A stretch of DNA of 49,306 bases from Deltaproteobacteria bacterium (lineage in GTDB: Bacteria > Desulfobacterota > Syntrophobacteria > BM002): positions 1 through 49,306 of the forward strand of contig JAJDNT010000239.1 in assembly GCA_022340515.1 (NCBI GenBank), written 5' to 3'. A program made the position numbers and the translations under genes. Of the stretch, positions 19,592 to 49,115 are shown in pieces. The number at the start of each line of letters is the position of its first letter. The stretch's first letter is position 1. The notes under the pieces were generated by a model. That model saw only the letters and a program-made list of their open reading frames with translations. It was not told the DNA's origin and ran no database searches.

Positions 19592-20707
19592 CTAAAATCC
19601 CAGCCTCAAAATCAAATAGAGTTTTGGGTCTCGATCACGGTCAGTTACACTCTGCCCTAGGTCAAGACCCACCTCAAAGGGGATTTTGCCAAATACAAAC
19701 ATTTGTAGTCGGATACCACCACCCACGCCAACTTCCGCTCCGGAAATAGATTTACTATCATCATAGTCTCGCCAGATTTGACCACTGTCCGCAAAGACCA
19801 CACCGAGGAGTTGCTGGAAGTGAAAGAGATCCCAAGGGGTGGTGGTCCGGTCTATAACCAGGAAAGGATAGCGCATTTCCAGACTGGCAGCCCACAGTTT
19901 CTCGCCAGAAAACTCGTTGAAGTCGTAGCCTCGCAGACTAGCCTCGCCCCCCAAGACGAACAATCTGGGATCATCCTTTTTCACCCCACCGTGAAGCCGC
20001 AATGATATTATCAACCGTTGGCCGGCTCCAAAGTACTCGTCCAGGTCCAGATTGTTGTAAAGCCGAAGGTCACCGGTATAACTTTGATAGGTGCTCTCAC
20101 TTCCCACGGCCTCATTACCATATTTTGCAGTGAGATTCACCTGGCTGCCGGAAATAATCTCCATAAGGTAGTAATCGGCCGTATCACGAACCAAACTGAG
20201 GGTGAAACCGTTTAGTCGCTCCCACTCATCGGGCAAATCCACCCATGCAATTTCATAGCCGGGAACTATCCTATGATACAAGTCAAAAGGAAAGCTGAAA
20301 GTAAGACTGCCACCCACCTCCCGGCGCCAGTCATCCTTGTCATTACCTGTGTCTTTTAAGTCACCGAAGAAGGTGTTCTTATCGAAGAGATTTATGCCAA
20401 CAGCGGGATACCAGCCGAGGTAAGTGTAGCCTGCCTGTAATTGCTCCTTACCACTTTCTGTCCCCATGCCGCCCCGGAAGCTAAGGACATGGTCTCCGGT
20501 GTAATTGCTCGCCTGCCAATCTATACCGGCAATGACACCATCTTTTTCGTTGTAGTCGAGGTAAGGAAAAAAGTAGTCAGTGGAAAAGCTGTCACGATAG
20601 TCTTGCTCTTTATAAGTTTCCCCTAGGCAGGGTAAAGTTAAGAAAAAAAGACAGAAGGACACAAGTATAAAAAACAACACGCTGGGGCGCCCAAATGGCT
20701 TCCACAT
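19592..20707 (-). CDS. Omp85/BamA-TamA family outer-membrane beta-barrel without POTRA domains
   Basis: Signal peptide from ATG 20707; LGGEASLRGY loop-6 motif; amphipathic strands; terminal Phe (LRLGF). Confidence 0.8.
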   Translation of the reverse strand: MWKPFGRPSVLFFILVSFCLFFLTLPCLGETYKEQDYRDSFSTDYFFPYLDYNEKDGVIAGIDWQASNYTGDHVLSFRGGMGTESGKEQLQAGYTYLGWYPAVGINLFDKNTFFGDLKDTGNDKDDWRREVGGSLTFSFPFDLYHRIVPGYEIAWVDLPDEWERLNGFTLSLVRDTADYYLMEIISGSQVNLTAKYGNEAVGSESTYQSYTGDLRLYNNLDLDEYFGAGQRLIISLRLHGGVKKDDPRLFVLGGEASLRGYDFNEFSGEKLWAASLEMRYPFLVIDRTTTPWDLFHFQQLLGVVFADSGQIWRDYDDSKSISGAEVGVGGGIRLQMFVFGKIPFEVGLDLGQSVTDRDRDPKLYLILRLGF

Positions 20708-20738
20708 TTTAATCTTGCCAGTTTTTGCCCGACAACCA

Positions 20739-22469
20739 TCAGGGCCTGCTACCATCAGCGACTCCAGACTCCCATGGCAACATAGCGTTTTCAAAAATCT
20801 GATATTGGCCGTGGCGAAAATAACTGAAGAGCAAACGTTGCCCATCCGAGCTGACCCGGGGTGAGAATATTCCACCTATAACTTTGGACAAAGGTTTCGT
20901 GGCACCGCTTCGCAGGTCCAGGAGGTGAAGATTGAAGATGCCAGTCTCGTCGGAGACGAAGAGGATTGCCTTGGCCTCAGGCAGGAATAGGGGCCATATT
21001 TCATCTTGAGCCGTGTCGGTAAGGCGGGTTTCTTCGCCGCTAAAAAGATCTTTGAGTACCAGGTCGAATTGCATTTGGTACTCCCTGGAGAAAACTAAGA
21101 ATTTGCCATCTGCAGACCAATGAGGGTAGGCTTCATCGTTTGGCGTCTGGGTCAAGGGTGTGAGCTCGCCTTTCTCAAGATTGATTTTATAAATATCGGC
21201 AAAACCGTCAACTGTTGCTACAAATCCCACTTCCGCATCTCCTGGGAGAAAAGCTGGAAAGCTGTTGACCCTCAGGTCCTGCTTGATGAGGTTTGCCTTT
21301 TTACGGTTTAAATCGTAAAGGAAAAGATCACTGCGATTGTCTTTGTCACTAACAAAAACTAAGCGCGTGCCGTCGTGAGACCAGTTCAAAGGAGCAGGGT
21401 ACAAATACCGTTTTTGCAGTCTAGTGAGCCGGCCGCTTGACAGTTCCAGTAGGTAAAGGGAAAAGTCGAATGATTCGTTTTCCCAGTCGGATAAGAAAGC
21501 AACCTTGCTACCGTCGGGACTATAGGCAGGAAAAAGGTTCCACCCTTTATTGGCGGTGAGAAGCCGGGCCTGGTGAAATGGGTCTTGCCATCCTTCTCCC
21601 CTTGCCCAGAGCCGTTTGCTGGCATACTCTCGCCAGGCCCACTCCAGCTGGTAGGGATCTTTGCCGGTAATCTCATAGAGTGCGCTGCGCAGGTTAAGCT
21701 TGTTTTTTATCAATCGGAGTAGACGGGGGATGGTCTCTGGGCCATAGGTTTCAACCAAAAACTGGATGAAAAGATCACTCTGGTAGTACGCTAGGCGGAT
21801 CTGGTGTGGGGGCAAATGGCTGAAGCCCCGCAGTTGGTTAAGAGGAATAAGTCTATGATCCATGACCGCATCCCTAACGTACATGGCGGTGGTGGAGTCC
21901 CAAGCCTCAGATTCATATTCAGCAACACCTTCCATGAACCACAGAGGTGAGAGCACACCAGTGAGTATGATCTGCAGTGAGCGGTAGGGGCCATCGAGGA
22001 GGTATTTGAGTTGGACAGCGTGGGTGATTTCATGGAGAGCCAACCGCTGCAAATATTTGTCATTGCTATGAACCGGAAATGCAACCCTTTCTTTGAAAAA
22101 TTCAGTGAAGCCGCCGCTCCCCCTTACTAGCCCAGTGACAATATTGGTGGCTTCATACTCCTTCTGGGAAGGGTAAATAAAGACGGGGATAGTTTCCTTA
22201 AAGGAAATATCCAGATCTTGGCTTATACGTTCAAGGTGGGTTCCATAAATGCGGGCCACATCGAGGGCTCGTCCTCTCAATTGGTCCGGATAAATAACCC
22301 GAAAGCCGTCGCCTCGAATCTCCTTCCAGAGGTAATCGGTATCGTGCACTTTATTCTTGCCGTACAAGCCCTCGGCGCCTGTGACGGTCATTCGTTCACG
22401 AGTACAGGAAAACAGAGCCAAAAGTAATATAAATAGCCAGAGTCTATGAGGGGACATTAGTCTTTCCAT
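20739..22469 (-). CDS. Lipoprotein: gluzincin (peptidase MA-like) domain plus TolB/PD40 beta-propeller
   Basis: Lipobox-like LFS-C; HEITH followed by PLWFMEGVAEY; repeated PxxSPDGxxxxF units. Confidence 0.8.
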   Translation of the reverse strand: MERLMSPHRLWLFILLLALFSCTRERMTVTGAEGLYGKNKVHDTDYLWKEIRGDGFRVIYPDQLRGRALDVARIYGTHLERISQDLDISFKETIPVFIYPSQKEYEATNIVTGLVRGSGGFTEFFKERVAFPVHSNDKYLQRLALHEITHAVQLKYLLDGPYRSLQIILTGVLSPLWFMEGVAEYESEAWDSTTAMYVRDAVMDHRLIPLNQLRGFSHLPPHQIRLAYYQSDLFIQFLVETYGPETIPRLLRLIKNKLNLRSALYEITGKDPYQLEWAWREYASKRLWARGEGWQDPFHQARLLTANKGWNLFPAYSPDGSKVAFLSDWENESFDFSLYLLELSSGRLTRLQKRYLYPAPLNWSHDGTRLVFVSDKDNRSDLFLYDLNRKKANLIKQDLRVNSFPAFLPGDAEVGFVATVDGFADIYKINLEKGELTPLTQTPNDEAYPHWSADGKFLVFSREYQMQFDLVLKDLFSGEETRLTDTAQDEIWPLFLPEAKAILFVSDETGIFNLHLLDLRSGATKPLSKVIGGIFSPRVSSDGQRLLFSYFRHGQYQIFENAMLPWESGVADGSRP

Positions 22470-22484
22470 TTTTATATGACCGGG

Positions 22485-23414
22485 TCAGTTCGATTCTTGC
22501 AGGCTTCTGACGGTTTTTTCCAGATCCAAGCATGTATTGGTGGAAAGCACCTCTGCCTGGCGGTAAATCCACCGGACCGAGCGACCAAGCATCTGGCCGG
22601 GGCCGATTTCAACCATGGGTGCCAGATTCTGCCGGACCAATTCCTCAACCACTCCTACCCACTGAACTTGACTGCGAAGTTGATTGGAGAGCAACTGGGC
22701 CACCTCGGCTGCTTTAACTAAAGGTTTTTGGCTGATATAAGAGAGGATAGGAGTATGGGGCTCATTCATTGAGGTGTTGTTAATCTTTTTGGCCAGGCAG
22801 TGATCGGCCGGGGTAAGGAGGCTACAGTGATAGGGTGCTGCTGCAGGGAGAAGGTCGGTCTTTAGGGCTTCTGAGTCCGCTGCCAGTTTCAACAGCTGAT
22901 CTACAGCCCACCGTTCGCCCGAGACGATTATTTGGTGTCGAGTATTCACTATGCTGACTTCGACTCGTCCTTTCACCTGGCGGCACAATTCCTCCACCTC
23001 TGAAAGTGACAGTCCGAGTACAACCCCCATGCCACCCTGGCTGTTGGCCTCGTTTATACAGCGCTCGGCCTCCACGATGAGGGTGAGACCAGTTTCAAAG
23101 CCCACAACTCCGGCAGCGTAGGCGGCTCCATAAATGCCCGAGCTATAAGGTGCGAGCGCTGCTGCCCTGACGGATCTATTGGCCAAAAGATCGGCCACCA
23201 TGCAGCTTATGGTATAGACTGCCAGCTGGGCGTTTAGATCCTTGTTGAGTCTTTCCTCAGGACCGGAAAACATGATCTCTCCCAGGGGCAATTCGAGATG
23301 ACGCTCCGCTCGCTTGAGCAGGTCCTCACTCTCAGGGAATCTTTCGACCAGGTCACGACCCATGCCCACATATTGGGCCCCCTGGCCTGGAAACAAAAAG
23401 CAGCAGCCGTTCAT
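22485..23414 (-). CDS. FabD-like acyl-CoA:ACP transacylase with atypical active site
   Basis: FLFPGQGAQYVGMG, EIGPG; PYSSG in place of GHSxG; PYHC. Confidence 0.85.
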   Translation of the reverse strand: MNGCCFLFPGQGAQYVGMGRDLVERFPESEDLLKRAERHLELPLGEIMFSGPEERLNKDLNAQLAVYTISCMVADLLANRSVRAAALAPYSSGIYGAAYAAGVVGFETGLTLIVEAERCINEANSQGGMGVVLGLSLSEVEELCRQVKGRVEVSIVNTRHQIIVSGERWAVDQLLKLAADSEALKTDLLPAAAPYHCSLLTPADHCLAKKINNTSMNEPHTPILSYISQKPLVKAAEVAQLLSNQLRSQVQWVGVVEELVRQNLAPMVEIGPGQMLGRSVRWIYRQAEVLSTNTCLDLEKTVRSLQESN

Positions 23415-23428: not shown

Positions 23429-24118
23429 CTAATAACTCTGTACCTGGAAACCTTCCGGCGGTTCAACGCTAAATAGGTCGTCTGAAAAGCCAGAGTTTTC
23501 TATGAGGTTTGACAGATAAATGAGAGTCCAGTCATCATTACCCTCTAAAATAGCGATCTCATTTGGTAGCCAGGTTTCGGGATCTATTTTAACTTCCAGC
23601 CGTTTGAAATATCGTGCACTCTTGGCAGATTTTGGTTCCAGGTCCATCTTTATCCATCTTCGATTGTCCCCGCGGGAGACCACTGTGACCTCTATCTCAT
23701 ATTGACGCTTGAAAGCTTGCGGATTATCGGTCGCACCGGTGATTCGGTCCAAAAACCCTACCCCCGACGGGCCGCGGTAAAGAGTCACTTTCTTGAGGTC
23801 TGGGTAAAGTAGGAGGATTTTATCTTCCCTAACCACTAGGGTAAGAGGGGCAGGTCGAACCACTTCCCAGCGCAAGCGACCAGGGGGCTGCCAAAACAGC
23901 TCACCTTCCGACTCCATGGGTCTTACCAGAAGCCGGGAGTATTTCCGTTGTTCAAAAGAACCTTTGAGAGTCTTTATTGTCTTGGCTTTGGCCTGGAGAT
24001 GATCCAGAACTTCTGCCACAGTCAGATGGGTTCCAGCCTTTACCTGCTGAGAGGTAAGGGCACTCATACCACCCAGAATAAGTCCTAGATGGAGCAGTAG
24101 TTTCAAAAATCTGGTCAT
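23429..24118 (-). CDS. LolA-like periplasmic carrier protein
   Basis: Signal peptide from ATG 24118; FEQRK...SEG...PGRLRWE...P; C-terminal LFSVEPPEG. Confidence 0.85.
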   Translation of the reverse strand: MTRFLKLLLHLGLILGGMSALTSQQVKAGTHLTVAEVLDHLQAKAKTIKTLKGSFEQRKYSRLLVRPMESEGELFWQPPGRLRWEVVRPAPLTLVVREDKILLLYPDLKKVTLYRGPSGVGFLDRITGATDNPQAFKRQYEIEVTVVSRGDNRRWIKMDLEPKSAKSARYFKRLEVKIDPETWLPNEIAILEGNDDWTLIYLSNLIENSGFSDDLFSVEPPEGFQVQSY

Positions 24119-24122
24119 TTTC

Positions 24123-24155
24123 AATTCGCAATCCGCAATCCGCAATCCGCAATTC
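24123..24155. repeat. AATCCGC heptamer tandem repeat
   Basis: aattcgc aatccgc aatccgc aatccgc aattc; fills the gap between the two genes. Confidence 0.85.
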
Positions 24156-25037
24156 TCATAGTGGCTCCACTATGTACCACTGGTCCGGATAGCGGCGGAT
24201 GTATTGTTCAAAAACCGTGGCAACCTGCCGCAAGTTGTGTTGCAGTGCCTTTTTACGGTCAGGGCCGTATTTTAAATCCAAGGGGGGTTCGACGACACCA
24301 CGATAGCGTCCCGGAGCCTCCATGACGGAAAAGGCAGGCAGAATCGGTGCACGAGCGGCCATTGCCAACAGCACCGGGCCAACTGGCAGCCGCACTGGAC
24401 GATTGAAAAAAGTTGTAACCTCTGCTCTATCGGTAGCAAAAACCCTGTCACCCAAAACAGCCACAACCTCATTTCGATTCAGAGCCTTAACCAAATCAAT
24501 GGCGCCGTATGCTGACTCCTCTACTTCGATGATCCTTATGCCATGACGCATTCTCATCACATTGATCAGAGCGTTGGTAAATGTGGTGTTGTGCTTTAAG
24601 GCCACAACGTTGACCGGATAGCCCATGGCCCGAAGTCCCAGGCCTCCAATTTCCCAATGGCCCAGATGAGCAGTGAGGAGCACCGCCCCTCTCCCTCTCT
24701 GCAAGGCTGCATCGATATGGTGGTGCCCCTGGTAAAGTTGAGCAAATGCCTGGCTTTCTTCCAAAGTCATGTTCAGAAGACGAAAAAAATCGACAACGTA
24801 GATTCCGTAGTTCTGGAAGAATCTCCACAGGAGCAACTTTCTATTAGCTGGTGGGTTGTAGCCGTTAAAGATAAGGTCAAAATTGTGCGAAACATGCCGC
24901 CGGTCTCGAGGCGAAAAAAGATAGGCAAGCGCGGCAACCAATCTTGCCAAACCATAGGTAACAGCTGCAGGCAGTAAACTGACGGTCTTCAGAGCTTGCC
25001 TATACAAAAATGGTTTATCTAGGAAATGTTCACGCAT
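24156..25037 (-). CDS. LpxL/HtrB-family (lysophospholipid) acyltransferase
   Basis: GRGAVLLTAHLGHWE (HX4E), LGDR, IRRYPDQWY. Confidence 0.88.
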   Translation of the reverse strand: MREHFLDKPFLYRQALKTVSLLPAAVTYGLARLVAALAYLFSPRDRRHVSHNFDLIFNGYNPPANRKLLLWRFFQNYGIYVVDFFRLLNMTLEESQAFAQLYQGHHHIDAALQRGRGAVLLTAHLGHWEIGGLGLRAMGYPVNVVALKHNTTFTNALINVMRMRHGIRIIEVEESAYGAIDLVKALNRNEVVAVLGDRVFATDRAEVTTFFNRPVRLPVGPVLLAMAARAPILPAFSVMEAPGRYRGVVEPPLDLKYGPDRKKALQHNLRQVATVFEQYIRRYPDQWYIVEPL

Positions 25038-25329: not shown

Positions 25330-26649
25330 ATGTCATTGAAAATATTGCTGATCTCACCCATAGGACTCAAGAAGATTCTGGGGGCGGACTTTTTCTTCAA
25401 ACTGCCCTTTCTGGGCCTGCCTACCGTTGCTGCCCATACGCCGCCGGACTGTGAAGTCAAAATGGTTGACGAGCGCATTAGTCCGGTAGATTTCACCGAT
25501 GATGCCGATCTAATTGGGATCTCGGTAATGACTCCTCTCGCTACCAGAGCATATGAGGTAGCCGATGAGTTCAAACGGCGGGGGAAGACTGTGGTAATGG
25601 GCGGCATGCATGTCTCGGCCCTTCCAGAGGAGGCTTTAGAGCATTGCGATGCCGTGGCGATTGGAGAAGGTGAAAAAGTTTGGCCCCAGATGGTGGAAGA
25701 CTTCAAGCGGGGGGAACTCAAGGAGGTTTACCGGGCCGATAAATTATTGGATCTGGGTGAGTCGCTGCCTCCCCGATGGGATATTATCGACAAGACCCTG
25801 TATAGCCCTGTTGACTTCATCGAAACTACCAGGGGATGTCCAATCAATTGCAACTTCTGCGCGGTCACTCAGTTTTACGGGGCCAAATACCGCATCAAAC
25901 CCATCCATCTTGTTGAGGAGATGGTGGCAAGGGTGAGGCCGGTGGATAAAATCTTCGCCCTCAAGAACCTTATATTTTTTGTTGATGATAATATAGTTGC
26001 CAATAGGAAACACTGCATGGCGCTGTTGAAAATGCTGAAGTCCTATAACATTCAGTGGCTAGGCCAGGCTTCGATTTCGGTTGCAAAGGATGATGAACTC
26101 CTAAAGTTGATGTCCGAAACCAGATGTCTCGGGCTACTAATAGGTATGGAGAGCCTTTCTGAGGATACTCTGGCTGAGTGTGGGAAACGGATAAACAAAC
26201 CGGCCGAATATTTGGAGGCCGTGGCCAATTTGCACCGTTATGGCATAGGGGTAAAGGCCACATTTATTATTGGCTTTGACAACGATGATATCTTGGTATT
26301 CCCCAAAATGGCGAGATTCATTAATAGATCTAACTTTGACAGTGTATATTTCAGTATTCTAACGCCCTACCCGGGTACCCGGCTTTTTGAGAAGATGGAA
26401 AGTGAGGGCCGACTGCTGCATAAGGATTGGGAGAGGTATGACACTGCTCATGTTGTCTTCCGTCCCAGGAAAATGACTGTCGAGCAGCTCGAAGAGGGAT
26501 TTGTTTGGCTTTACAAGAGAGCCCTTTCAATGAAATCAATAGTGTTGCGGCTGGCCCGAGCCAGAACAAATCCTCAGTTTTTTCTTCCCGACAACTTGGC
26601 CTTTAGATCGTGCCTGTTCAAAATGCTGCGAGGAAATAAGAAAATTTAA
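25330..26649 (+). CDS. Cobalamin-binding radical SAM protein
   Basis: N-terminal B12-binding domain (KILLISP, GGMHVS, GEGE); TRGCPINCNFC; DDN, GMES, TPYPGT. Probable ATG 25330. Confidence 0.88.
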   Translation: MSLKILLISPIGLKKILGADFFFKLPFLGLPTVAAHTPPDCEVKMVDERISPVDFTDDADLIGISVMTPLATRAYEVADEFKRRGKTVVMGGMHVSALPEEALEHCDAVAIGEGEKVWPQMVEDFKRGELKEVYRADKLLDLGESLPPRWDIIDKTLYSPVDFIETTRGCPINCNFCAVTQFYGAKYRIKPIHLVEEMVARVRPVDKIFALKNLIFFVDDNIVANRKHCMALLKMLKSYNIQWLGQASISVAKDDELLKLMSETRCLGLLIGMESLSEDTLAECGKRINKPAEYLEAVANLHRYGIGVKATFIIGFDNDDILVFPKMARFINRSNFDSVYFSILTPYPGTRLFEKMESEGRLLHKDWERYDTAHVVFRPRKMTVEQLEEGFVWLYKRALSMKSIVLRLARARTNPQFFLPDNLAFRSCLFKMLRGNKKI

Positions 26650-41160: not shown

Positions 41161-41212
41161 CATGCGGGAATCTCGGATTTCCGGATGGAAAGTAACCAAG
41201 GAGGAACAACCA

Positions 41213-41927: not shown

Positions 41928-41983
41928 AATAAAAATTGCTCAGACCTGGCCCCATTCTTCTGGCGAATCACGGTTTTAGAGAT

Positions 41984-42421: not shown

Positions 42422-42422
42422 A

Positions 42423-43151
42423 ATGGTGGATCGCAGTGCGGTCTCTCTTAGATTTTGTGCTCTTATTCCAGCTTACAACCTTGCTAGCACCATCTCGGAG
42501 GTGGTTTGTAAGACTAGTAAACACTTAGGCGAAATTCTGGTAGTGGACGACGGTTCCCAGGATGACACTGCCCGTCTGGCCAAAGAAAGTGGGGCCAAAG
42601 TTCTCAGAATTGCCAAAAACCAGGGGAAAGGTTGGGCCTTGCGCTGCGGGTTCAAGCATCTGCTGCAGAAGCCTTGGGAGGGTATCATTACGCTGGACGG
42701 GGACCTACAACATGACCCGGTGGAAATCCCCAATCTGATTAAGGAGCATGACAAATCAGGGTCACAGATCGTTATCGGCTCTAGAATGGTGCAAACAGAG
42801 AGGATGCCCTGGATAAGATATTGGACCAATAGAATTGGAGTCTATTGCATCTCATGGGCGGTTGGACAGCCTCTGACAGACACCCAAAGTGGATTTCGGC
42901 TCTATCGCAGAGAAGTTCTCGAAACCATTCCACTGTGGACCACCCGTTACGATACCGAGACAGAAATATTGCTCAAGGCCGGTTTGCTGGGAATGCAGGT
43001 AACCTCTATCCCCATAAAGACAATTTATTACGAGGATGAGCAAAATAGCTCTTCTTTTAGGCCCTTTCCGGACACCTTTCTCATCTGTATGGTATTTCTC
43101 AAAAGCCTTTTTTGGAGACGAGGATGGTATCTTAGGAATTTTGTCATATGA
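42423..43151 (+). CDS. Glycosyltransferase family 2
   Basis: IPAYN, VVDDGS, NQGKG, DGDLQH, DTQSGFR. Confidence 0.9.
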   Translation: MVDRSAVSLRFCALIPAYNLASTISEVVCKTSKHLGEILVVDDGSQDDTARLAKESGAKVLRIAKNQGKGWALRCGFKHLLQKPWEGIITLDGDLQHDPVEIPNLIKEHDKSGSQIVIGSRMVQTERMPWIRYWTNRIGVYCISWAVGQPLTDTQSGFRLYRREVLETIPLWTTRYDTETEILLKAGLLGMQVTSIPIKTIYYEDEQNSSSFRPFPDTFLICMVFLKSLFWRRGWYLRNFVI

Positions 43152-43244
43152 CTGTCGCCTAGCGCAAAGAGCATAGCGCATAGCGTAAGCTGGAGCAATT
43201 AATGATTGGATTACGCAGTTTGTCGACCACCGGGATAAGATAGT

Positions 43245-44465
43245 ATGGGTGAAATCGGGGTAATCGTAACTGGCATTGGAATCATCTGTGCTCTGGGAGA
43301 GCAGAAAGAAGCGTTTTGGAATGGTCTCAGCCAGGGAAAGTGTGGACTTGGCGAGATTGACCTTTTTGATGTATCCGGCTACCGCAGTCGTGTGGGAGGG
43401 CAGGTGAGGAATGTTGATTTCTCTTCCAGGCTTTCCCTACATGAAAGTCGCCGCTTGGGCCGGTGTGATAAGTTGGGGTTGTGGGCCGCCCAAGAGGCTC
43501 TGAAGGAAGCAAAGATCATGGAGCGCGATCTGCCGCCGGACCGAGTTGCTGTTGTTATGGGCGCCGGTGCCGGCGGTGTTTTTGAGGCAGAGCATTACCG
43601 CCGCCAGCTCTATGAGAGACGTCCCCGTCCCCGACCTTCTTTGCTTATGCCTTTTCCTGCCTGCAATCTTACCGATGCTATTGGAAATCTCTACGGTTTT
43701 TCCGGAGTCCGCTCCACTATCGCCACAGCTTGTTCTTCCAGCGCTACCGCCATAGGCTACGGGGCGGATCTCATTCGCTCAGCAAAGGCTGACGTGGTTA
43801 TTGCGGGAGGAGCTGAGTCCCTCTCGGAGCTCACTTTTTCTGGCTTTAATGCCCTACGTTCGGTGGACCGGAAGACTTGCCGACCTTTTGATCGGAATCG
43901 GGAGGGATTGGTACTAGGTGAGAGTGGCAGTATCTTGGTTCTTGAGTCTAAAAGGCTTGCAGCGGCCCACGGGGTATCCGGATATGCCGAGGTCCTGGGA
44001 TATGGCATTTGCGCCGACGCTTACCACATGACCTCTCCAGATAGACAAGGGGAAGGAGCGCAGAGAAGCATGTTTAATGGACTTGGCGCTGCTGGCATAC
44101 CGGCGGAAGCGGTGGATTATATCAACGCCCACGGCACTGGAACAGTGATAAACGACAAAGTGGAAACCCTGGCGATCAAAAGGCTTTTCGGGGAAAGATC
44201 CCACTCGCTCCCCATAAGCTCGGTGAAGTCCGCCTTGGGACACTGCCTTGGGGCAGCCGGAGCGCTGGAGGCCATTGCCTCCATTTTGGCCCTTTATCAT
44301 GGGGTAGTTCCTCCAACATTGAACTATGAGGAACCTGATCCGGACTGCGATTTGGACTATGTACCCAATGAGCCTAGGGTGGCCAACATTGGGGTGGCCA
44401 TGTCAAACTCCTTTGCTTTCGGTGGTAACAACACCACCCTGGTGTTTGCAAGGACTGATCTATAA
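43245..44465 (+). CDS. fabF: Beta-ketoacyl-ACP synthase (FabF-type, catalytic)
   Basis: Intact Cys-His-His triad: TACSSS, INAHGTGT, GHCLGAAG; SNSFAFGG. Confidence 0.9.
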   Translation: MGEIGVIVTGIGIICALGEQKEAFWNGLSQGKCGLGEIDLFDVSGYRSRVGGQVRNVDFSSRLSLHESRRLGRCDKLGLWAAQEALKEAKIMERDLPPDRVAVVMGAGAGGVFEAEHYRRQLYERRPRPRPSLLMPFPACNLTDAIGNLYGFSGVRSTIATACSSSATAIGYGADLIRSAKADVVIAGGAESLSELTFSGFNALRSVDRKTCRPFDRNREGLVLGESGSILVLESKRLAAAHGVSGYAEVLGYGICADAYHMTSPDRQGEGAQRSMFNGLGAAGIPAEAVDYINAHGTGTVINDKVETLAIKRLFGERSHSLPISSVKSALGHCLGAAGALEAIASILALYHGVVPPTLNYEEPDPDCDLDYVPNEPRVANIGVAMSNSFAFGGNNTTLVFARTDL

Positions 44466-44479
44466 AATCTAAAAAAGTC

Positions 44480-45715
44480 ATGGCAAGAATACCAATAAGC
44501 ATAACCGGCTTGGGCATCATAAACGGGCTGGGTATTGGAAAATCGACATTTTGGCACGAGCTGGTTAGGGGTAAATCTGGTATAGCACCGATTATGGGTT
44601 TCGATACTGGCAAATATGTTTGCAATCTTGGGGCTGAGATACCCAATTTCAATGCCAAGGATTTTATGGAACCTCGCTTTTATCGCAGACTAAGTCGCCA
44701 ATCTCGCCTTGCGGTTGCCGCGAGCATCGAAGCCATAAATGACAGTGGCTTGGAAATCTCGGAGCTGAACCGCCAGCGGATCGGAGTGGTCTTTGGAACC
44801 GCCTTTGGTAGTACGGAGCAAACGGATGCGTTTTTTGTAAGCCTTTTGGATCATGGTCCACAGGCGGCTGACCCAATACTTTTTCCAGATACGGTGCCTA
44901 ACGCTCCTGCCAGCCATGTCGCCATGTATCATGGGATACAAGGTCCCAATAGCACCTTTTGCCAAAATCATCTCTCTGGTGAATGTGCCCTGGCTTACGG
45001 AATAGCATTGTTGGAGCAGGATAAAGCAGATGTTGTGCTGGTGGGAGGTGTTGACGAACTATCGAACATCCTATTTCACAGCCTCGACTCGGTTGGTGCT
45101 TTGAAGCCCATCAAGGAGCGAGAGACACTCCAGCCTAGCCAATTTCCCACAGGTAGAGGATTCATTGTCGGCGAAGGGGTTACCTGCTTGGTGTTGGAGC
45201 GGGCGGAGTTTGCGGAGAGGGCAGAGAAAAAGAGCTATGGAACTATTTTGTCCCTGACGCTAACCAGTGGAATCGTGGCTCAGGCGCACTATGAACGAGA
45301 TGGTGGGGCCATGGCGCAAGGGATGCGGGTCGCATTGAAGGAGGCCAAGATCGCAGTGGAAGAGATTGGTATTATTGGGCTGGCCGCTAATGGGGTTGAT
45401 GAGCTTGAGGAAGGAGAAACTAAGGCTTTGGAGGAGGTTTTTGGTTATAGGTGGCATGCGATCCCTAGGCTACCAGTTCGTTATTTCGTCGGTGAATTCG
45501 GTAGTGCAGGCCTCCTGAACGTGGCAACTATTTTACTTTCCTTGGCCGAGGGAACTATACCACCGACCGTTCGAGGATCCGATCTGACCGGTTCTTTTGG
45601 TAAAGCTCAAAGATTTGCACTTGCGACTGATGAAACTATTGTTGCTGGAATGGCCATAGGTTCTACTTTTGGCGGCGGGAGCGCTTGTACGATTGTTGCG
45701 AGGCAACCGGAATGA
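44480..45715 (+). CDS. Non-catalytic ketosynthase homolog (chain-length-factor-like)
   Basis: KS fold (ITGLG, FPDTVPNAPASH, GEG), but catalytic positions replaced (QNHLSG, GLAANG, GEFG). Confidence 0.85.
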   Translation: MARIPISITGLGIINGLGIGKSTFWHELVRGKSGIAPIMGFDTGKYVCNLGAEIPNFNAKDFMEPRFYRRLSRQSRLAVAASIEAINDSGLEISELNRQRIGVVFGTAFGSTEQTDAFFVSLLDHGPQAADPILFPDTVPNAPASHVAMYHGIQGPNSTFCQNHLSGECALAYGIALLEQDKADVVLVGGVDELSNILFHSLDSVGALKPIKERETLQPSQFPTGRGFIVGEGVTCLVLERAEFAERAEKKSYGTILSLTLTSGIVAQAHYERDGGAMAQGMRVALKEAKIAVEEIGIIGLAANGVDELEEGETKALEEVFGYRWHAIPRLPVRYFVGEFGSAGLLNVATILLSLAEGTIPPTVRGSDLTGSFGKAQRFALATDETIVAGMAIGSTFGGGSACTIVARQPE

Positions 45716-45825
45716 TGGAAAGGTGGAATAATGGAATGATGGGTCGAGAGGAATTAGACCAATGAGAAAAGACTTCATCTGCTTTAAGTCGCCAGAATTC
45801 CAATATTCCATTATTCCAACATTCC
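45709..45825. repeat. Inverted pair of 8-nt arrays (GGAATGAT ... ATTATTCC)
   Basis: ggaatgatggaaaggtggaataatggaatgatgg ... ttccaatattccattattccaacattcc. Confidence 0.8.
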
Positions 45826-45860
45826 TGCTAGGGCAAAACAGGTGACCCAAAGGCGATCTG

Positions 45861-47240
45861 ATGCGCATACTCCTGATTTCACCAAACACCGAAATGCTAC
45901 CCGACCCAGTCTTCCCTCTTGGACTGGCCTTTTTGGGCGGTGCGCTCGAGCTCAGCGCCCACGAGTACCAGGTCCTTGATCTTTGCTTCGTTGAGGACTA
46001 CGGAGAAGCTTTGGAGCGGGCTGTAGCTAATTTTAGCCCTGAAGTAATAGGACTTTCCTTGCGCAATGTAGATAATGTGGCCTATCCCAATACCCATTCC
46101 TATCTGCCTTTTTACCGGAAGGTGGTTTCACATTTGCGAAAGCTTACCACCGCACCCATAGTTCTGGGGGGCTCGGGATTCAGCCTTATGCCGGGACAAA
46201 TATTGAGAGATCTGGAAGCAGACTATGGTATCGTGGGTGAAGGTGAGATTTCTCTTATTCTTTTCCTTGACCAATTGGAGCGTGGCCAGTCTATCTATCG
46301 GGTGCCCGGCCTCATTACAGCCCATTCCAACAAATCCTCACAAGCAATTTCACCACAGCGTTTTTCCATTCAGGATATCATTATGCCTAGCAGGGAAAAG
46401 CTTGCCAATGAAGCTTACCTTCGTTTCGGCGGCATGGGAAACGTCCAAACCAAGAGAGGTTGTGGCTTTTCATGTGTCTACTGTACTTACCCTTTGATTG
46501 AGGGAAAAGAGATTCGGTTGCGATCACCTAAGCAAGTTGGAGAGGAAATCCAGCACCTTTATGATCAGGGTGTCGACAATGTTTTCGTTGTTGATAATGT
46601 GTTCAATTTCCCCCCGCACCACGCCCAATCAATATGCAAGGAAATTTTACAAAGGAACTTGGAGGTGAAGTGGAGCTGCTACCTCAATCCACAGTTTGTA
46701 ACCGAGTCTTTGCTGTCTCTAATGAAAGAGTCTGGTTGTACCGGAGTAGAGTTTGGCACTGACGCCGGCTCCGACTCGGTTTTGAAGAGATTGGGAAAGT
46801 CATTTACTACAGAGGAGGTGCGGCGAGCATCGGAACTCTGCCACAAAGTAGGGCTATCCTCATGCCACTCCTTGGTTTTTGGTGGTCCGGGGGAAAGCAA
46901 GGAAACCCTCCAAGAAACCTTTGCTCTCATGGACGAGGTCTCGCCTACTGCAGTAATTGCCATGGTGGGTATAAGGCTTTTTCCAGGTACAAAACTTGCG
47001 GATTTCGCCTCCCCCGTAGATTTGATTATCGAAGACGACTCAATGTTAAAACCGACTTTCTATCTGGCTCAGTCAGTACGTCCTTTCGTCCTCGATATTT
47101 TGTACGAGCATGTGAAGGAGAACAAGAACTGGATTTTACCGGGGTCAAACGTAAATATCGACAGAAGACTACAAGAAAAACTGCGACGCTTTGGTCTCAA
47201 GGGACCTCTGTGGGAACATATGCAAGTAAGGCGAAAGTAA
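45861..47240 (+). CDS. Lipid-biosynthesis cobalamin-binding radical SAM protein (ladderane-cluster type)
   Basis: MRILLISPNTEMLPDPVFPLGL, SLRNVDN, QTKRGCGFSCVYCTYP, DNVFNFP, EFGTDA, FGGPGE. Confidence 0.85.
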   Translation: MRILLISPNTEMLPDPVFPLGLAFLGGALELSAHEYQVLDLCFVEDYGEALERAVANFSPEVIGLSLRNVDNVAYPNTHSYLPFYRKVVSHLRKLTTAPIVLGGSGFSLMPGQILRDLEADYGIVGEGEISLILFLDQLERGQSIYRVPGLITAHSNKSSQAISPQRFSIQDIIMPSREKLANEAYLRFGGMGNVQTKRGCGFSCVYCTYPLIEGKEIRLRSPKQVGEEIQHLYDQGVDNVFVVDNVFNFPPHHAQSICKEILQRNLEVKWSCYLNPQFVTESLLSLMKESGCTGVEFGTDAGSDSVLKRLGKSFTTEEVRRASELCHKVGLSSCHSLVFGGPGESKETLQETFALMDEVSPTAVIAMVGIRLFPGTKLADFASPVDLIIEDDSMLKPTFYLAQSVRPFVLDILYEHVKENKNWILPGSNVNIDRRLQEKLRRFGLKGPLWEHMQVRRK

Positions 47241-47244
47241 AGAT

Positions 47245-47536
47245 CCAGCTGGCAGCTGGCAACAGGCAGCGCGCAGTGAACACAAGGCACTTTGGAATTT
47301 TTGATTTCGGATTTGGAGAGGCATAGAGCAGAGGGCATGGAGCATGGAGTAAGGAGCCAGAAGTCAGAATCCAGAATTCAGGAGAAAGGCAATCAAAGGC
47401 TTTTAAAGCCTTGAACGATTTGAACGAATCCGGCGAAGCCGGATGATAGAACGAATTAAACGATTTCAAAGGTTTCAACGTTTTGAACGGATTGAACAAT
47501 GGATCCGCTTGGGGCGGAACCACGGACGATGGACCA
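47245..47536. repeat. Composite block of 7-9 nt tandem repeats with embedded mini-hairpins
   Basis: GGCAGCT, GATTTCG, GCATAGA, CAGAATT, TTGAACGAT and CAATGGA-type arrays; hairpins at 47428-47444 and 47504-47518. Confidence 0.8.
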
Positions 47537-47557
47537 GGCTCTGCTTGCGATAAGGGA

Positions 47558-48385
47558 ATGAGCGTGCTGAATCTCCTCACGGTGGACTTGGAAGACTGGT
47601 TTCATATATGCGAGGTGGAAAATCTGTTGCCTAGGGAAAAGTGGAACAGTTTTCCATCCACCGTGGTTGCAGATACGGAGAAACTTTTGACTTTGTTCGC
47701 TCAGGCGAGTTCACAGGCAACTTTTTTCGTACTCGGCTATATTGCAGATAACCACCCTGAGCTAATTAAACGCATTCATGATATGGGACACGAAATTGGC
47801 TATCACGGCTGGGATCATGAACTAGTTTACAACCTGAGCCCACGAGAGTTTCGCCAGATTTTGCGCAAGGGAATTGACTGTATCGGAAAGCTGATAGATA
47901 AGAGACCCGTTGGTTTTCGGGCGCCCCAGTGGTCGATAAATGATCGCAGTAGTTGGGCTTTAGAGATTTTGGCTGAGGAGGGTTTTGTCTATGACTCCAG
48001 CCTGGCTCCCCTAAAGATTATTGGAAACGAGTCCTATCCGAGGATCCCCTGGAAGATAGAAACAACGACAGGATACTTATGGGAATTACCGCCCTTGACC
48101 CTAAAGACTCCCTTTGGCCACTATCCCGCCGGAGGCAGTTGGGGCTTAAGACTTTTGCCTTACCCCGTACTTAGACACAGGGTGCGGGGATTCAACCGGC
48201 GCCAGCTGCCCACACTTTTCTATTTTCATCCCAGAGAGTTCGGCGGGAATAAGGGCTCTATCGGCCTTCCTCCATCGAAGAAGTTTGCCCTGTACGGCGG
48301 TATCTGGGGCAGCGAATCGCAGCTCATCAAGCTTCTGGCTGATTTTCCCTTTACCTCCATCGAAAATTATCTGAGTAAATTTTAA
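47558..48385 (+). CDS. Polysaccharide deacetylase (CE4, DUF3473-type)
   Basis: TVDLEDWF, ATFFVLG, GHEIGYHGWDH, GFRAPQWS, YDSS, YFHPRE. ATG 47558. Confidence 0.88.
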   Translation: MSVLNLLTVDLEDWFHICEVENLLPREKWNSFPSTVVADTEKLLTLFAQASSQATFFVLGYIADNHPELIKRIHDMGHEIGYHGWDHELVYNLSPREFRQILRKGIDCIGKLIDKRPVGFRAPQWSINDRSSWALEILAEEGFVYDSSLAPLKIIGNESYPRIPWKIETTTGYLWELPPLTLKTPFGHYPAGGSWGLRLLPYPVLRHRVRGFNRRQLPTLFYFHPREFGGNKGSIGLPPSKKFALYGGIWGSESQLIKLLADFPFTSIENYLSKF

Positions 48386-48390
48386 ATCCT

Positions 48391-48440
48391 CCCGGCCCCC
48401 CATCGTCCGCCTGAGGCGGACTCAGGCGAGGCGGGTGGGG
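48391..48440 (-). repeat. REP-like hairpin related to the 2115-2154 insert, with a nested 15-nt hairpin
   Basis: Reverse complement CCCACCCGCCTCGCCTGAG[TCCGCCTCAGGCGGA]CGATGG versus CCCGCCCGCCTCGCCTGAG[CGACTCG]CGATGG; lies between convergent genes. Confidence 0.7.
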
Positions 48441-48446
48441 GGATTT

Positions 48447-49115
48447 TCAAATACTCTTCAATTTAATTTCCCTGTTATTGACCATCAGATAGTGGGGCGG
48501 GTATTCAGTCCAGGCGCCGGTATTGATGTAACGCACACCTTGGACAGTACGATCCTCTGGGTGGTGAGTATGACCGCAAGCAATGGCTCCGAAGCCTTTT
48601 TCTTTGGCGAATTTCACCGCATCGAGCATAAGCTTCCTTCGATAGAGTCGGTAAAAGGTCTCGAACTTACTGGCGAATTGAGCCACGTTCACTGGTTTGC
48701 GGCCCGATTTTACCAGAATAAACTGGACCACCTTGAATGGTCTGAAAAGCTGTTGAATCTTCGCCTTAGTTTTGTCGAGTTCGTTACCGTGGGTGATTAT
48801 CAGACGGTTGTCAACAGTGTGGATGCGCTTAAACTGGATTTTCCCTCTATCTCGAAGCAGAGAGCAGTCGTCGTGGTTTCCACGGATCCAAACAATATTT
48901 CTACGAAAAGATTCCTTCCCAATTAGATCAAGAATTTGCAGATTTTCCCGGGGCAAATTTGGATAGGAGCTGTCGATGATGTCACCGTTGAGAATAAGAT
49001 CGCATTCTTCAGGCAAGTTTTTGATGAAAAAAGTTATGAGGTGAGATAAGGTGTGGACAGACTCTAAATGCAGATCACTAATTACAACTGCTTCCATGGT
49101 GTCCTTAGATAGCAT
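48447..49115 (-). CDS. Calcineurin-like metallophosphoesterase (UDP-2,3-diacylglucosamine hydrolase-like)
   Basis: SDLH, NGDIID, GNHD, THG, CGHTH, YINTGAW. Confidence 0.82.
   Translation of the reverse strand: MLSKDTMEAVVISDLHLESVHTLSHLITFFIKNLPEECDLILNGDIIDSSYPNLPRENLQILDLIGKESFRRNIVWIRGNHDDCSLLRDRGKIQFKRIHTVDNRLIITHGNELDKTKAKIQQLFRPFKVVQFILVKSGRKPVNVAQFASKFETFYRLYRRKLMLDAVKFAKEKGFGAIACGHTHHPEDRTVQGVRYINTGAWTEYPPHYLMVNNREIKLKSI

Follow-up and report, generated by a model that had tools for sequence, protein, structure and literature searches.

A candidate ladderane-type lipid gene cluster with an accessory ATP-driven reductase module in a Syntrophobacteria-type Desulfobacterota genome

Aryl polyene clusters comprise a beta-ketoacyl-acyl carrier protein synthase (KS) with its CLF partner, an acyl carrier protein (ACP), a ketoreductase and a dehydratase without enoyl reductase, a 4HBT thioesterase, an acyltransferase of the lysophospholipid acyltransferase (LPLAT) type, a GT2 glycosyltransferase, a LolA-like carrier, an MMPL exporter and a methyltransferase. 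Aryl polyene and flexirubin clusters are defined by an aryl-carboxylate-activating enzyme and the supply of an aromatic starter. In the anammox bacterium Kuenenia another type of cluster was described, in which type II fatty acid synthase genes are combined with radical SAM enzymes, methyltransferases, a non-canonical FabF, a deacetylase-like protein and a B12 radical SAM enzyme; similar clusters were reported in Desulfotalea psychrophila, Geobacter and Pelobacter, and for D. psychrophila the same report gives unusual polyunsaturated hydrocarbons and no ladderanes (Rattray et al., 2009, PMC2649909). For the cluster kuste3335-3352 a glycosyltransferase, a phytoene desaturase, SAM methylases, FabZ, ACPs, FabG and two radical SAM enzymes are described (Javidpour et al., 2016, PMC4790861), next to a phenylacetyl-CoA ligase, FabF, a non-canonical FabF and a deacetylase-like protein (PMC4790861, PMC2649909). 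According to a survey of 2023, clusters of the antiSMASH class "ladderane" are expressed with unknown function in Desulfobacterota and eight other groups, and ladderanes are reported there from anammox Planctomycetota only (PMC9902471). Here we describe a related block of genes in a window of 49,306 nucleotides (the whole stretch of DNA that was analysed; contig JAJDNT010000239.1 of assembly GCA_022340515.1), which is one contig of a metagenome-assembled genome (MAG; 342 contigs, 87% complete) of an uncultured anaerobic Deltaproteobacteria bacterium of sediments, placed in the Syntrophobacteria of the phylum Desulfobacterota.

The second described system to which this block is related forms ether bonds in lipids of anaerobes. 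PlsA/PlsR of Clostridium perfringens is built as Act1-Act2-Red1 with a separate Red2 and is assigned to the family of 2-hydroxyacyl-CoA dehydratases (HAD) and benzoyl-CoA reductases (BCR) (PMC12838417), and Ger of Thermotoga maritima and Desulfatibacillum alkenivorans, with the domain order BBDHDDH, carries a pair of activase domains and, after them, DUF2229 and HGD-D pieces (PMC13159169). The modules are the same in both, i.e., a PF01869 activase, DUF2229 as Red1 and HGD-D as Red2. Both act on glycerolipid esters, and they are the only DUF2229 proteins with a function in the literature consulted (PMC13159169, PMC12838417).

Genes of the window were called from a list of open reading frames (ORFs) with Pfam and NCBIfam scans, and 27 ORFs (g01-g27) were scanned (Table 1). 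Five of them are referred to by number: g07 is a B12 radical SAM enzyme with DUF4070, g11 a DUF2229 plus HGD-D protein, g12 an activase, g15 a SPASM radical SAM enzyme and g25 the TIGR04072 enzyme. From about 17.8 to 48.4 kb the genes make up a single modular unit of biosynthesis, which varies the widespread "ladderane-type" cluster in which a type II fatty acid/polyketide synthase is joined to radical SAM enzymes for lipid synthesis. That it forms a unit is shown by synteny, and the mechanistic steps proposed below rest on family functions and gene adjacency. It consists of four alternating operons. The first (minus strand, 25037->19592) runs from the LpxL-like acyltransferase over LolA-like, FabD-like and PD40/peptidase-MA genes to Omp85; the second (plus, 25330->30969) holds g07, SRPBCC, methyltransferase and PEGA genes and g11; the third (minus, 39939->30964) holds ATP-grasp, a PF06695 membrane protein, g15, a CsgG/NHL lipoprotein, MMPL and g12; the fourth (plus, 40248->48385) holds FabG, ACP, 4HBT thioesterase, FabZ-like dehydratase, GT2, KS, the CLF-like partner, g25 and the deacetylase. 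A preliminary description of this DNA had proposed the four operons, and every gene it named was found again on the same strand and essentially at the same coordinates; the SRPBCC, PEGA, CsgG/NHL, Sm_multidrug_ex and PD40 genes are cluster members that were left out of its list.

The class of the core is indicated by g25, which scores 402.1 bits over positions 1-441 of the 443 positions of the TIGR04072 model (401.5 bits in the scan of the genome, where it is the only copy above the cut-off) and which has both the B12-binding domain (PF02310, E 3.3e-13) and the radical SAM domain (PF04055, E 1.4e-22) with the CxxxCxxC motif CGFSCVYC at residue 201. The CxxxCxxC motif is found in all three radical SAM proteins of the cluster. 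The KS has an intact Cys-His-His triad as read by eye (motifs TACSS, HGTGT, GHCLGAAG), and its CLF-like partner has, by eye against the KS, other residues at all three motif positions. With the anammox clusters kuste3335-3352, kuste3603-3608 and kuste2802-2805 and the syntenic clusters of D. psychrophila, Geobacter and Pelobacter, the block shares the ACP, the KS pair, FabG, the FabZ-like dehydratase and the TIGR04072 enzyme; other radical SAM enzymes and genes for a SAM methyltransferase, a glycosyltransferase and a deacetylase-like protein are common to them as well. Thus, the parts that make a cluster ladderane-type in the sense of Rattray et al. (2009) are present, i.e., ACP, KS and non-canonical KS, FabG and FabZ-like together with radical SAM enzymes, methyltransferase, glycosyltransferase and deacetylase-like protein; in contrast, the 27 ORFs contain neither a phytoene-desaturase-like (amine-oxidase) nor a phenylacetyl-CoA-ligase-like (AMP-binding) domain, and no enoyl reductase was found among them by Pfam and NCBIfam. 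The window adds the DUF2229/HGD-D reductase, the activase and the ATP-grasp ligase and, in this genus, MMPL, LolA-like, Omp85 and lipoprotein genes. The assignment of the scaffold to aryl polyene and ladderane-like clusters that had been made from the sequence therefore holds, as the TIGR04072 cut-off is passed and the anammox candidate cluster is described with the same parts (PMC4790861, PMC2649909). The expectation of a possibly undescribed system has to be narrowed, as clusters with this core have been on record since 2009 from Geobacter, Pelobacter, Desulfotalea and anammox bacteria, if only as uncharacterised ones. In the open-access literature no paper was found for TIGR04072 or rSAM_ladder_B12 by name, for Geobacter with ladderane and antiSMASH, or for cobalamin-dependent radical SAM with ACP, ketosynthase and Thermodesulfobacteriota.

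Linkage across genomes was followed in two ways. In a sample of 401 genomes of the phylum, relatives of g25 (at E≤1e-60) and of g11 were counted; moreover, an alignment of g15 orthologs was scanned against contigs representing one genome per species, and the best 80 of 293 relatives' loci were used, of which 35 that are flanked by 8 kb or more on either side and have a g15 less than 70% identical to that of the window are referred to as distant loci. Two genomes of the same genus (G014 and G010) hold all 27 genes in conserved order with 63-95% identity, which on its own is weak evidence for one unit. In another family of the same phylum (f17; G118, G269, G348, G082) one co-directional operon holds most of the cluster in the order ATP-grasp, (deacetylase), GT2, SPASM gene (49-53% identical), C-terminal half of g11, N-terminal half of g11, activase (54-57%), B12 radical SAM, LpxL-like, ACP, FabD-like, thioesterase, B12 radical SAM, g07-like (38%), g25 ortholog (44-47%), FabG and KS. 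This operon departs from the window in gene order and strand, and its g11 halves are separate, swapped proteins; therefore, the linkage was kept through rearrangement. Similarly, ACP, KS, g25 or the LpxL-like gene stands beside the SPASM gene in 31 of the 35 distant loci (the exceptions are L064, L095, L098 and L099). Counted singly, the LpxL-like acyltransferase is present in 31 of these loci, GT2 in 29, a g07-like enzyme (37-45% identity) in 28, ACP in 26, thioesterase and g25 in 25 each, and deacetylase and FabD-like in 22 each. The LpxL-like gene usually adjoins the DUF4070 B12 radical SAM gene, and g25 always adjoins KS, CLF and FabG. The preliminary description had named a lack of co-conservation of the operons, which would make them chance neighbours, as the finding that would speak against its reading; linkage instead holds well beyond close kin, as seen in the single operon of f17 and in 31 of 35 distant loci.

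Within the phylum sample g25-like genes occur in 153 of 401 genomes and g11-like genes in 22 of 401; a g25-like gene is present in 19 of the 21 other g11-bearing genomes compared with 152 of 400 overall, the bearers belonging to six families in which kin are not independent. Cluster orthologs were furthermore found in Geomobilimonas luticola JCM 17780, Oryzomonas japonica Red96, Geobacter sp. AOG1 and OR-1 and in Nitrospirota MAGs. Two loci of Geobacter relatives (L071 of G. luticola and L108 of O. japonica) have the order deacetylase, GT2, SPASM gene, LpxL-like, ACP, g07-like, FabD, thioesterase and g25, which in L071 continues with FabG, KS, CLF and dehydratase; in L108 these fall beyond the fetched end. 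A cluster can contain between two and four B12 radical SAM genes, with three g07-like genes and a TIGR04072 ortholog in O. japonica (L108, 12580-19302) and in f17, which suggests variable tailoring of one scaffold. Some genomes of the window's genus (e.g., G013:C1:2124894-2126165 and G011:C1:2758556-2759857) have a second B12 radical SAM enzyme that is 35-37% identical to g25; it replaces the g25 ortholog in some and is additional in others, is not found in the window's own genome and may mark another, different cluster of the same type. In one genome (G002) only g11-g27 are seen and a g07 ortholog is missing at E≤1e-60; no conclusion on a loss of the left arm was drawn from this, because a run of N of about 34 codons lies at the synteny break on its single contig (G002:C1; joined coordinate about 23000, L011-L013; the g11 match begins at residue 63) and may be an assembly join or gap.

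The most conserved gene of the cluster is g15, with 50-57% identity in the distant loci and, at the N-terminus of its product, a conserved helical stretch of about 110 extra residues. The predicted structure of g15 (pLDDT 89.4) shows a generic SPASM/twitch fold, for which Foldseek places SkfB, SuiB, anSME, BlsE, PqqE and MoaA ahead and GDGT-MAS only 40th (TMq 0.39). By phmmer g15 matches GDGT-MAS (7tol) with E 1.1e-4 over about 70 residues, and g25 and g07 give no match to it. The best NCBIfam matches of g15 are the decarboxylases AhbD and NirJ, all far below the cut-offs. The idea of a membrane-spanning lipid, made by coupling of chains through radical chemistry, thus finds no specific support in the predicted fold. 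A search of a protein-cluster database returned only generic "radical SAM/SPASM" clusters for g15 and only "DUF2229" for g11. That the SPASM enzyme belongs to the highly conserved parts of such clusters is new in the sense that no mention of it was found in the open-access literature.

The reductase module comprises g11, g12 and the ATP-grasp ligase. The two halves of g11 are homologous to each other, DUF2229 and HGD-D each match in two stretches (HGD-D in short ones), and each half has three invariant cysteines, C81/C116/C301 and C431/C461/C688 (28 and 34 aligned sequences), which are shared with the PlsA/PlsR-like proteins of the same genome. An AlphaFold model from a 40-sequence alignment (pLDDT 86.7) gave 18 Foldseek matches at E≤1e-3, all 18 of them HAD, BCR or double-cubane cluster protein (DCCP) structures (3o3m/3o3n/3o3o, 6eno, 7yyl/7yzm, 8s02/8s2r, 9g87/9gai), i.e., the 2-hydroxyisocaproyl-CoA dehydratase HadBC, DCCP, the benzoyl-CoA reductase BzdNO and the 3-methylbenzoyl-CoA reductase MbdON; by sequence only DCCP was reached in the PDB (E 0.48), and neither HadBC nor BCR was matched at E≤1. 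In fold, both halves thus agree with HAD dehydratases, class I benzoyl-CoA reductases and DCCP; an ATP-driven activase is likewise the partner, and the conserved cysteines would imply Cys-ligated clusters. In contrast to these enzymes, the two subunits are fused in g11, the DUF2229 signature is present, and the context is lipid biosynthesis and not amino-acid or aromatic fermentation. Judged from its domains, g11 is equivalent to the Red1 module of PlsA joined to PlsR, and the proposed relation of the DUF2229 protein and its activase to PlsA/PlsR and Ger is borne out by Pfam domains, cysteine conservation and colinearity, as far as these systems are described (PMC12838417, PMC13159169). Three conserved cysteines per Red module and anaerobic hosts are common to all. 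The modules are split differently, a single-domain activase and a Red1-Red2 fusion in the window versus the fused tandem activase of PlsA and Ger, and unlike these g11 is embedded in a FAS/radical-SAM cluster.

The genome has a canonical pair of its own on contig C201, a plsA-like gene (1064 amino acids, two activase domains and DUF2229) followed by a TAG stop and a plsR-like gene (447 amino acids), and a partial third copy on C183. At this locus (C201:38520-46577; L122:2521-10578) the plsA-like gene is directly preceded by genes for a sigma-54 response regulator and a fusion protein of 587 amino acids, in which a CDP-alcohol phosphatidyltransferase, i.e., a membrane domain resembling a lipid synthase, is joined to a sensor kinase with PAS, HisKA and HATPase domains. 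Fused N-C (window's genus), two genes in the order N, C (family f37 and G182) and two genes in the order C, N (f17 and related loci) are the arrangements of the DUF2229 reductase seen when the loci L030/L032/L034/L036 and L022/L024/L026 are compared with positions 28747-30969 of the window. An in-frame TGA was flagged in some matches to the C-terminal half of g11, and in G118 the match runs past the ORF start.

A g11-like gene occurs in 6 of the 35 distant loci, together with ATP-grasp in 6 of 6 and with the activase in 5 of 6, and ATP-grasp without g11 occurs in 1 of the other 29 (L057). In the four named Geobacter relatives neither g11 nor ATP-grasp was matched at the cluster locus. As the reductase module is missing from 29 of 35 distant loci, the Geobacter-relative loci included, it is accessory and not part of the core chemistry. 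Metagenome contigs were moreover scanned with an alignment of fused g11-like proteins (the group at 36% identity), and the best 80 of 540 relatives' loci were used. A length of 12 kb or more was reached by 39 loci. In 33 of these the g11-like gene is directly followed, in the same direction, by a gene for a g12-like activase (54-62% identical), and in 37 the g11-like gene and activase stand among unrelated housekeeping genes; other cluster genes adjoin only in L138 and L141 (70-73% identical). The neighbours of the 37 free-standing pairs are variable, with the commonest family in 7 of 37 only, and those annotated (PBP5, sigma factor, anti-sigma kinase, SpoVAE, aldolase, GGDEF) give no functional hint. 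Because of the activase downstream in 33 of 39 and the unrelated neighbours in 37 of 39 loci, the pair is regarded as a self-contained unit, widespread in anaerobes and mostly standing by itself as plsA-plsR does, which was built into the lipid cluster by some Desulfobacterota. A recurrent PlsA/PlsR-like reductase with activase and ATP-grasp in a ladderane-type cluster is new in that it was not found in the open-access literature: DUF2229 with radical SAM and lipid led only to the Ger paper and its preprint, and the word "activase" is absent from the text of the anammox cluster paper PMC4790861.

From the gene families a pathway can be proposed in six steps. The FabD-like transacylase, ACP, KS/CLF, FabG and the FabZ-like dehydratase would build a dedicated acyl chain on its own carrier, and since the cluster lacks an enoyl reductase gene, an unsaturated or polyenic chain is the probable outcome, as it is in aryl polyene clusters. 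Second, g25 would modify the ACP-bound chain, probably by C-methylation. This is favoured because the nearest characterised relatives are the tryptophan 2-C-methyltransferase TsrM (PDB 6wte, E 5.6e-44) and BzaD, an enzyme of B12 lower-ligand biosynthesis (NCBIfam model, 233 bits), names as given by PDB and NCBIfam. TsrM and BzaD both methylate aromatic carbons. Third, thioesterase and LpxL-like acyltransferase would pass the chain to an acceptor, either a lipid or a sugar, and GT2 and deacetylase could supply an amino-sugar head group, as GT2 resembles polyprenyl-phosphate sugar synthases (AglJ, PpgS, ArnC, below the cut-offs) and is accompanied by a deacetylase; the ATP-grasp ligase could acylate or amino-acylate this head group. 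Fourth, g07 and the SPASM enzyme probably act on the assembled lipid, for g07 because it usually stands beside the LpxL-like gene and in L057 and f37 also beside a PlsC-type acyltransferase. Fifth, g12 and g11 would be a recruited ATP-driven low-potential reductase, with which the ATP-grasp ligase came along. Finally, in this genus MMPL, LolA-like, Omp85, CsgG/NHL and PD40 proteins, whose N-termini look signal- or lipoprotein-like by eye, would move the product to the outer membrane, in which the product of aryl polyene, flexirubin and xanthomonadin clusters is presumably anchored as well.

For the fifth step the likeliest role, put at somewhat less than even odds, is that g11 and g12 take the acyltransferase's ester product and convert it by reduction into an alk(en)yl ether. 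The basis is the membership of g11 in the DUF2229 branch, the self-contained nature of the pair as in plsAR and the context in f37. The small operon of this family contains a PlsC-type acyltransferase (PF01553), an LpxL-like acyltransferase, a g07-like B12 radical SAM enzyme and the N- and C-terminal halves of g11, next to a divergent methyltransferase and, in three genomes, with no KS or ACP near; the halves of g11 thus follow the PlsC-type gene, the LpxL-like gene (in 2 of the 3 genomes) and the g07-like gene, which is consistent with a role on an assembled ester. As to the reduction of ester to ether claimed earlier, the DUF2229 branch makes it plausible, and the distance of g11 from the canonical pair of its own genome keeps it a conjecture. 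That the g11 variant makes an undescribed lipid, i.e., a non-isoprenoid chain that is C-methylated or cyclised by radical SAM enzymes, ether-bound to an amino-sugar or glycerol head group by the cluster's own ATP-driven reductase and destined for the outer membrane, appears unlikely.

A different chemistry for the same two proteins, which we consider rather unlikely, is that of a classical HAD/BCR-type enzyme acting on an ACP- or CoA-thioester within the same cluster. It might be a ketyl-radical dehydration of a 2-hydroxyacyl starter or a Birch-like reduction of a conjugated polyenoyl or aryl thioester; it could replace the enoyl reductase that is missing from the 27 ORFs, and the ATP-grasp ligase would make the thioester or an acyl-phosphate substrate. 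The fold matches to 2-hydroxyisocaproyl-CoA dehydratase, BzdNO, MbdON and DCCP, the presence of ATP-grasp in all six distant loci with g11 and the operon of f17, which places the two parts of g11 with the activase between the SPASM gene on one side and ACP, FabD and thioesterase on the other, are in line with this. However, DUF2229, the hallmark of PlsA and Ger, fits g11 far better (E 1.8e-54) than HGD-D does (E 5.2e-14, in short C-terminal stretches), the PDB sequence search misses HadBC and BCR, the f37 module stands with PlsC-type and LpxL-like acyltransferases and without a carrier protein, and L057 has ATP-grasp without g11.

Alternatively, the block might be an island of two gene sets that are adjacent only through shared regulation or history, with the KS/CLF/TIGR04072 core making one product and acyltransferase, g07, methyltransferase and g11/g12 remodelling bulk membrane phospholipids, for instance by methylation and ether formation. 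The f37 genomes fit this arrangement, as their remodelling module is separated from the TIGR04072 gene, which sits on a different contig in G381 and G333 and is without a match at E≤1e-60 in G195 (where an LpxL-like match is missing too), and as neither KS nor ACP is near. The 37 of 39 free-standing pairs fit it as well, and so does G359, a genome with a minimal FabG-TE-KS-CLF-TIGR04072 core (TE, thioesterase) and no other cluster genes within about 18 kb. Against it, f17 and the related loci L081, L094, L101 and L117 interleave both sets with short gaps in a single co-directional operon, the linkage survives changes of gene order, strand and fusion state of g11, and the LpxL-like (31 of 35) and DUF4070 radical SAM genes (28 of 35) stand beside ACP and thioesterase in the distant loci. 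Two independent gene sets are considered improbable.

A synthesis of polyunsaturated fatty acids or hydrocarbons under anaerobic conditions, as proposed by Rattray et al. for D. psychrophila, with the SPASM enzyme as a decarboxylase like AhbD, NirJ or BlsE, is judged slightly less probable again. D. psychrophila with its syntenic cluster is reported with polyunsaturated hydrocarbons and no ladderanes (PMC2649909), the cluster is without an enoyl reductase, and AhbD and NirJ are the best NCBIfam matches of the SPASM enzyme, with BlsE among its nearest structures. These family matches are, however, far below their cut-offs, it would be left unexplained why the acyltransferase (31 of 35 loci), GT2 (29) and the deacetylase (22) are conserved, the phytoene-desaturase-like genes invoked for desaturation are not among the 27 ORFs, and heterologous expression of anammox genes is reported to have given no polyunsaturated fatty acids (PMC10139942). 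An ordinary aryl polyene or flexirubin pigment cluster or a true ladderane cluster is hardly credible: it would account for the scaffold in common (KS/CLF, ACP, ketoreductase and dehydratase without enoyl reductase, thioesterase, LPLAT-type acyltransferase, GT2, LolA-like, MMPL and, as in xanthomonadin clusters too, the methyltransferase and the overall logic), for the flexirubin matches below threshold and for the "ladder" in the name of TIGR04072, but FlxB (NF053542) reaches 250.3 bits against a cut-off of 340 and LolA2_flexi (NF053544) 70.8 against 125, the 27 ORFs hold no AMP-binding or other aryl-activating, ammonia-lyase or chorismate-lyase domain for aryl activation or starter supply and no phytoene-desaturase-like gene, three radical SAM enzymes and an HAD/BCR-type reductase are present instead, and the host is a Syntrophobacteria-type Desulfobacterota MAG, whereas ladderanes are reported only from anammox Planctomycetota (PMC9902471) and not from D. 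psychrophila (PMC2649909).

The region or close relatives of it were found in rhizosphere and sediment metagenome runs of 14 studies. In two RNA libraries of one study, Logan contigs that are 90-97% identical cover 28 of 30 (X19) and 25 of 30 (X20) bins of positions 28747-48385, including g11, g12, MMPL, SPASM, ATP-grasp, ACP/thioesterase and KS genes; such contigs show presence only, neither strand nor level, and the uncovered bins (2 of 30 and 5 of 30) carry no meaning. This is a weak hint that the cluster is transcribed in relatives.

Several findings weigh against the reading of the block as one lipid pathway with an ether-forming step, and the evidence does not fix the chemistry of the cluster: gene families, co-linkage and cofactor motifs are at hand, from which we infer the rest. 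The modules are dispersed in f37, and in the family f19 ATP-grasp, GT2, the SPASM gene and the C-terminal half of g11 stand together with g25 and FabG 88 kb away. The absence of the reductase module from most distant loci belongs here as well, and the home function of the free-standing pairs need not concern this lipid. Although g11 is colinear with the canonical pair of its genome, it is only 25% identical to C201 and 29% to C183 (the BBD-type copies); for this reason g11 is, judged by sequence, a distant paralog and not an ortholog of that plsA/plsR-like pair, and it may have another substrate. Methylation by the B12 enzymes is deduced by analogy with relatives only, and members of the DUF4070 class, BchE and HpnJ among them, catalyse other reactions. 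The export genes are kept with the cluster mainly among close relatives: in line with the export chain claimed in the preliminary description they are present and conserved within this circle, but the claim does not extend to the cluster type, as MMPL is found in 2 of 35 and LolA-like in 0 of 35 distant loci and Omp85 in 0 of 80 loci. The contigs of the RNA libraries might derive from carry-over of DNA, and no member of this cluster type has a known product.

Towards the left, the cluster probably extends by one gene to the phosphodiesterase-family gene at 17847-19490, since this gene is colinear within the genus (G014 and G010) and a copy of 56% identity stands inside the distant cluster L057, between MMPL and the methyltransferase. 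The Omp85 gene adjoins the cluster only within the genus (G014, G010; 0 of the 80 g15-anchored loci), and the PD40/peptidase-MA gene is likewise linked within the genus only; the N-termini of its product, with a lipobox-like appearance by eye only, and of the CsgG/NHL protein, lipoprotein-like by eye only, are hydrophobic with a cysteine. For g07 the ORF opens at 25228 and the ATG at 25330 agrees with ortholog alignments (motif CPINCNFC), and the true start of the ACP is probably later than 41141, as judged from orthologs that align from about residue 17-35 onward. A gene 46-49% identical to the methyltransferase at 27324-28205 is found beside the f37 module and in L057, g12 is convergent with g11 with an overlap of 6 nucleotides, and the PF06695 gene adjoins the SPASM gene in L054, L055 and L057 and is near it in L079. 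Between 30500 and 49306 a scan gave 15 promoter-like and 25 terminator-like sites compared with 18.2 and 20.5 expected from shuffles, which says nothing on operon ends. A GC-rich hairpin of 8 pairs with a T-run lies at 34762-34785 (minus) in the 107-nucleotide gap between CsgG/NHL and MMPL genes, in a scan where terminator-like sites are overall no commoner than in shuffles.

The left 17.6 kb of the window are unrelated and hold genes for old yellow enzyme, SDR, an MFS transporter, DNA polymerase IV, GGDEF, a lytic transglycosylase, a NuoE/F-like module and pilus genes. In this part, a NuoE-like [2Fe-2S] protein, a NuoF-like FMN/[4Fe-4S] subunit (695 amino acids) and a protein with [2Fe-2S]/[4Fe-4S] ferredoxin domains stand in a row at 10495-13858 (minus); the trio, which has no relation to the cluster, resembles a diaphorase module as found in bifurcating hydrogenases or formate dehydrogenases. 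A fourth, small radical SAM protein (295 amino acids; 4602-5489, plus) is encoded between the MFS transporter and DNA polymerase IV genes, 13 kb left of the cluster and with no sign of membership.

Table 1. Genes of the cluster and at its borders, with positions in the window and the domain or family matches on which the names are based.
Feature	Position	Strand	Matches and remarks
Type I phosphodiesterase/alkaline-phosphatase superfamily, N-terminal signal/transmembrane segment	17847-19490	-	PF01663 E 5.2e-20; no NCBIfam match
Omp85-family outer-membrane beta-barrel	19592-20875	-	PF01103 E 8.9e-16
PD40 beta-propeller with peptidase-MA-like domain	20739-22469	-	PF07676, PF13485
FabD-like malonyl-CoA:ACP transacylase	22485-23414	-	PF00698 E 2.4e-25; TIGR00128 189 bits, below cut-off 261
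LolA-like periplasmic lipid/lipoprotein carrier	23429-24145	-	PF03548 E 4.7e-16; LolA2_flexi NF053544 70.8 bits, below cut-off 125
LpxL/PatA-like acyltransferase (lysophospholipid-acyltransferase superfamily)	24156-25037	-	PF03279 E 2.2e-36; all NCBIfam equivalogs below cut-off
g07, B12-binding radical SAM with C-terminal DUF4070 (HpnJ/BchE/HpnR-like class)	25330-26649	+	PF04055, PF02310, PF13282
SRPBCC/polyketide-cyclase-like lipid-binding protein	26774-27409	+	PF03364, PF10604; also in L057
Class I SAM-dependent methyltransferase	27324-28205	+	PF13489 E 6e-22
Small PEGA-domain protein	28331-28663	+	PF08308 E 7.6e-6; kept only among close relatives
g11, fused two-module [4Fe-4S] reductase/dehydratase (DUF2229 + HGD-D), 740 amino acids	28747-30969	+	PF09989 E 1.8e-54, PF06050 E 5.2e-14
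g12, single-domain ATP-dependent activase (HgdC/BcrAD type)	30964-31938	-	PF01869 E 6.2e-50; TIGR00241 205.7 bits, above cut-off 125.4
MMPL/HpnN-like RND-type lipid exporter	32168-34729	-	PF03176 E 3.3e-31; HpnN TIGR03480 261 bits, below cut-off
CsgG-like N-terminal domain with NHL beta-propeller	34837-36495	-	PF01436, PF03783; close relatives only
g15, SPASM-domain radical SAM	36492-37874	-	PF04055, PF13186
Small membrane protein, Sm_multidrug_ex (putative small multidrug export family)	38067-38612	-	PF06695
ATP-grasp ligase	38716-39939	-	PF02786, PF15632, PF02655
3-oxoacyl-ACP reductase FabG	40248-40982	+	TIGR01830 305 bits, above cut-off 297.75
Dedicated acyl carrier protein	41141-41515	+	PF00550 E 7.6e-11; GLDSID motif
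4HBT/YbgC-like hotdog thioesterase	41502-41927	+	PF13279, PF03061
FabZ/FabA-like 3-hydroxyacyl-ACP dehydratase	41936-42421	+	PF07977 E 7.8e-12; FabZ models 81 and 75 bits, below cut-offs
GT2, polyprenyl-phosphate-sugar synthase type (AglJ/PpgS/ArnC-like)	42423-43151	+	PF00535 E 1.2e-22; NCBIfam matches below cut-offs
Beta-ketoacyl-ACP synthase KS	43245-44465	+	PF00109, PF02801; NF005589 416 bits, above cut-off 387
CLF-like non-catalytic KS partner	44480-45715	+	PF00109, PF02801
g25, B12-binding radical SAM, TIGR04072 "lipid biosynthesis B12-binding/radical SAM protein" (rSAM_ladder_B12)	45861-47240	+	402.1 bits, above cut-off 360
Polysaccharide-deacetylase-family protein with DUF3473	47483-48385	+	PF01522, PF11959; TIGR03006 211.5 bits, below cut-off 276
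Metallophosphoesterase, membership doubtful	48447-49115	-	PF00149; adjacent only within genus; 0 of 80 loci

As a summary, genes like TIGR04072 are common in anaerobes (153 of 401 genomes of the phylum), with orthologs of the full cluster in Nitrospirota and among the anammox candidates, and after more than 15 years neither a product nor an enzyme function is known for this cluster. An ATP-driven reductase of the BCR/HAD type, from the branch of the ether-lipid enzymes PlsA and Ger, was repeatedly built into the ladderane-type cluster. As cultured Geobacter relatives carry the core, the question of the product is testable, and its assignment would help to say where sedimentary ether and branched lipids come from and what the "ladderane" radical SAM enzymes really do. 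If the undescribed ether-bound lipid outlined above is indeed made, the cluster would be a genetic source for the orphan branched alkyl-ether lipids of anoxic sediments and would provide the first assignable function for the TIGR04072 family, with a bearing on ladderane biosynthesis.

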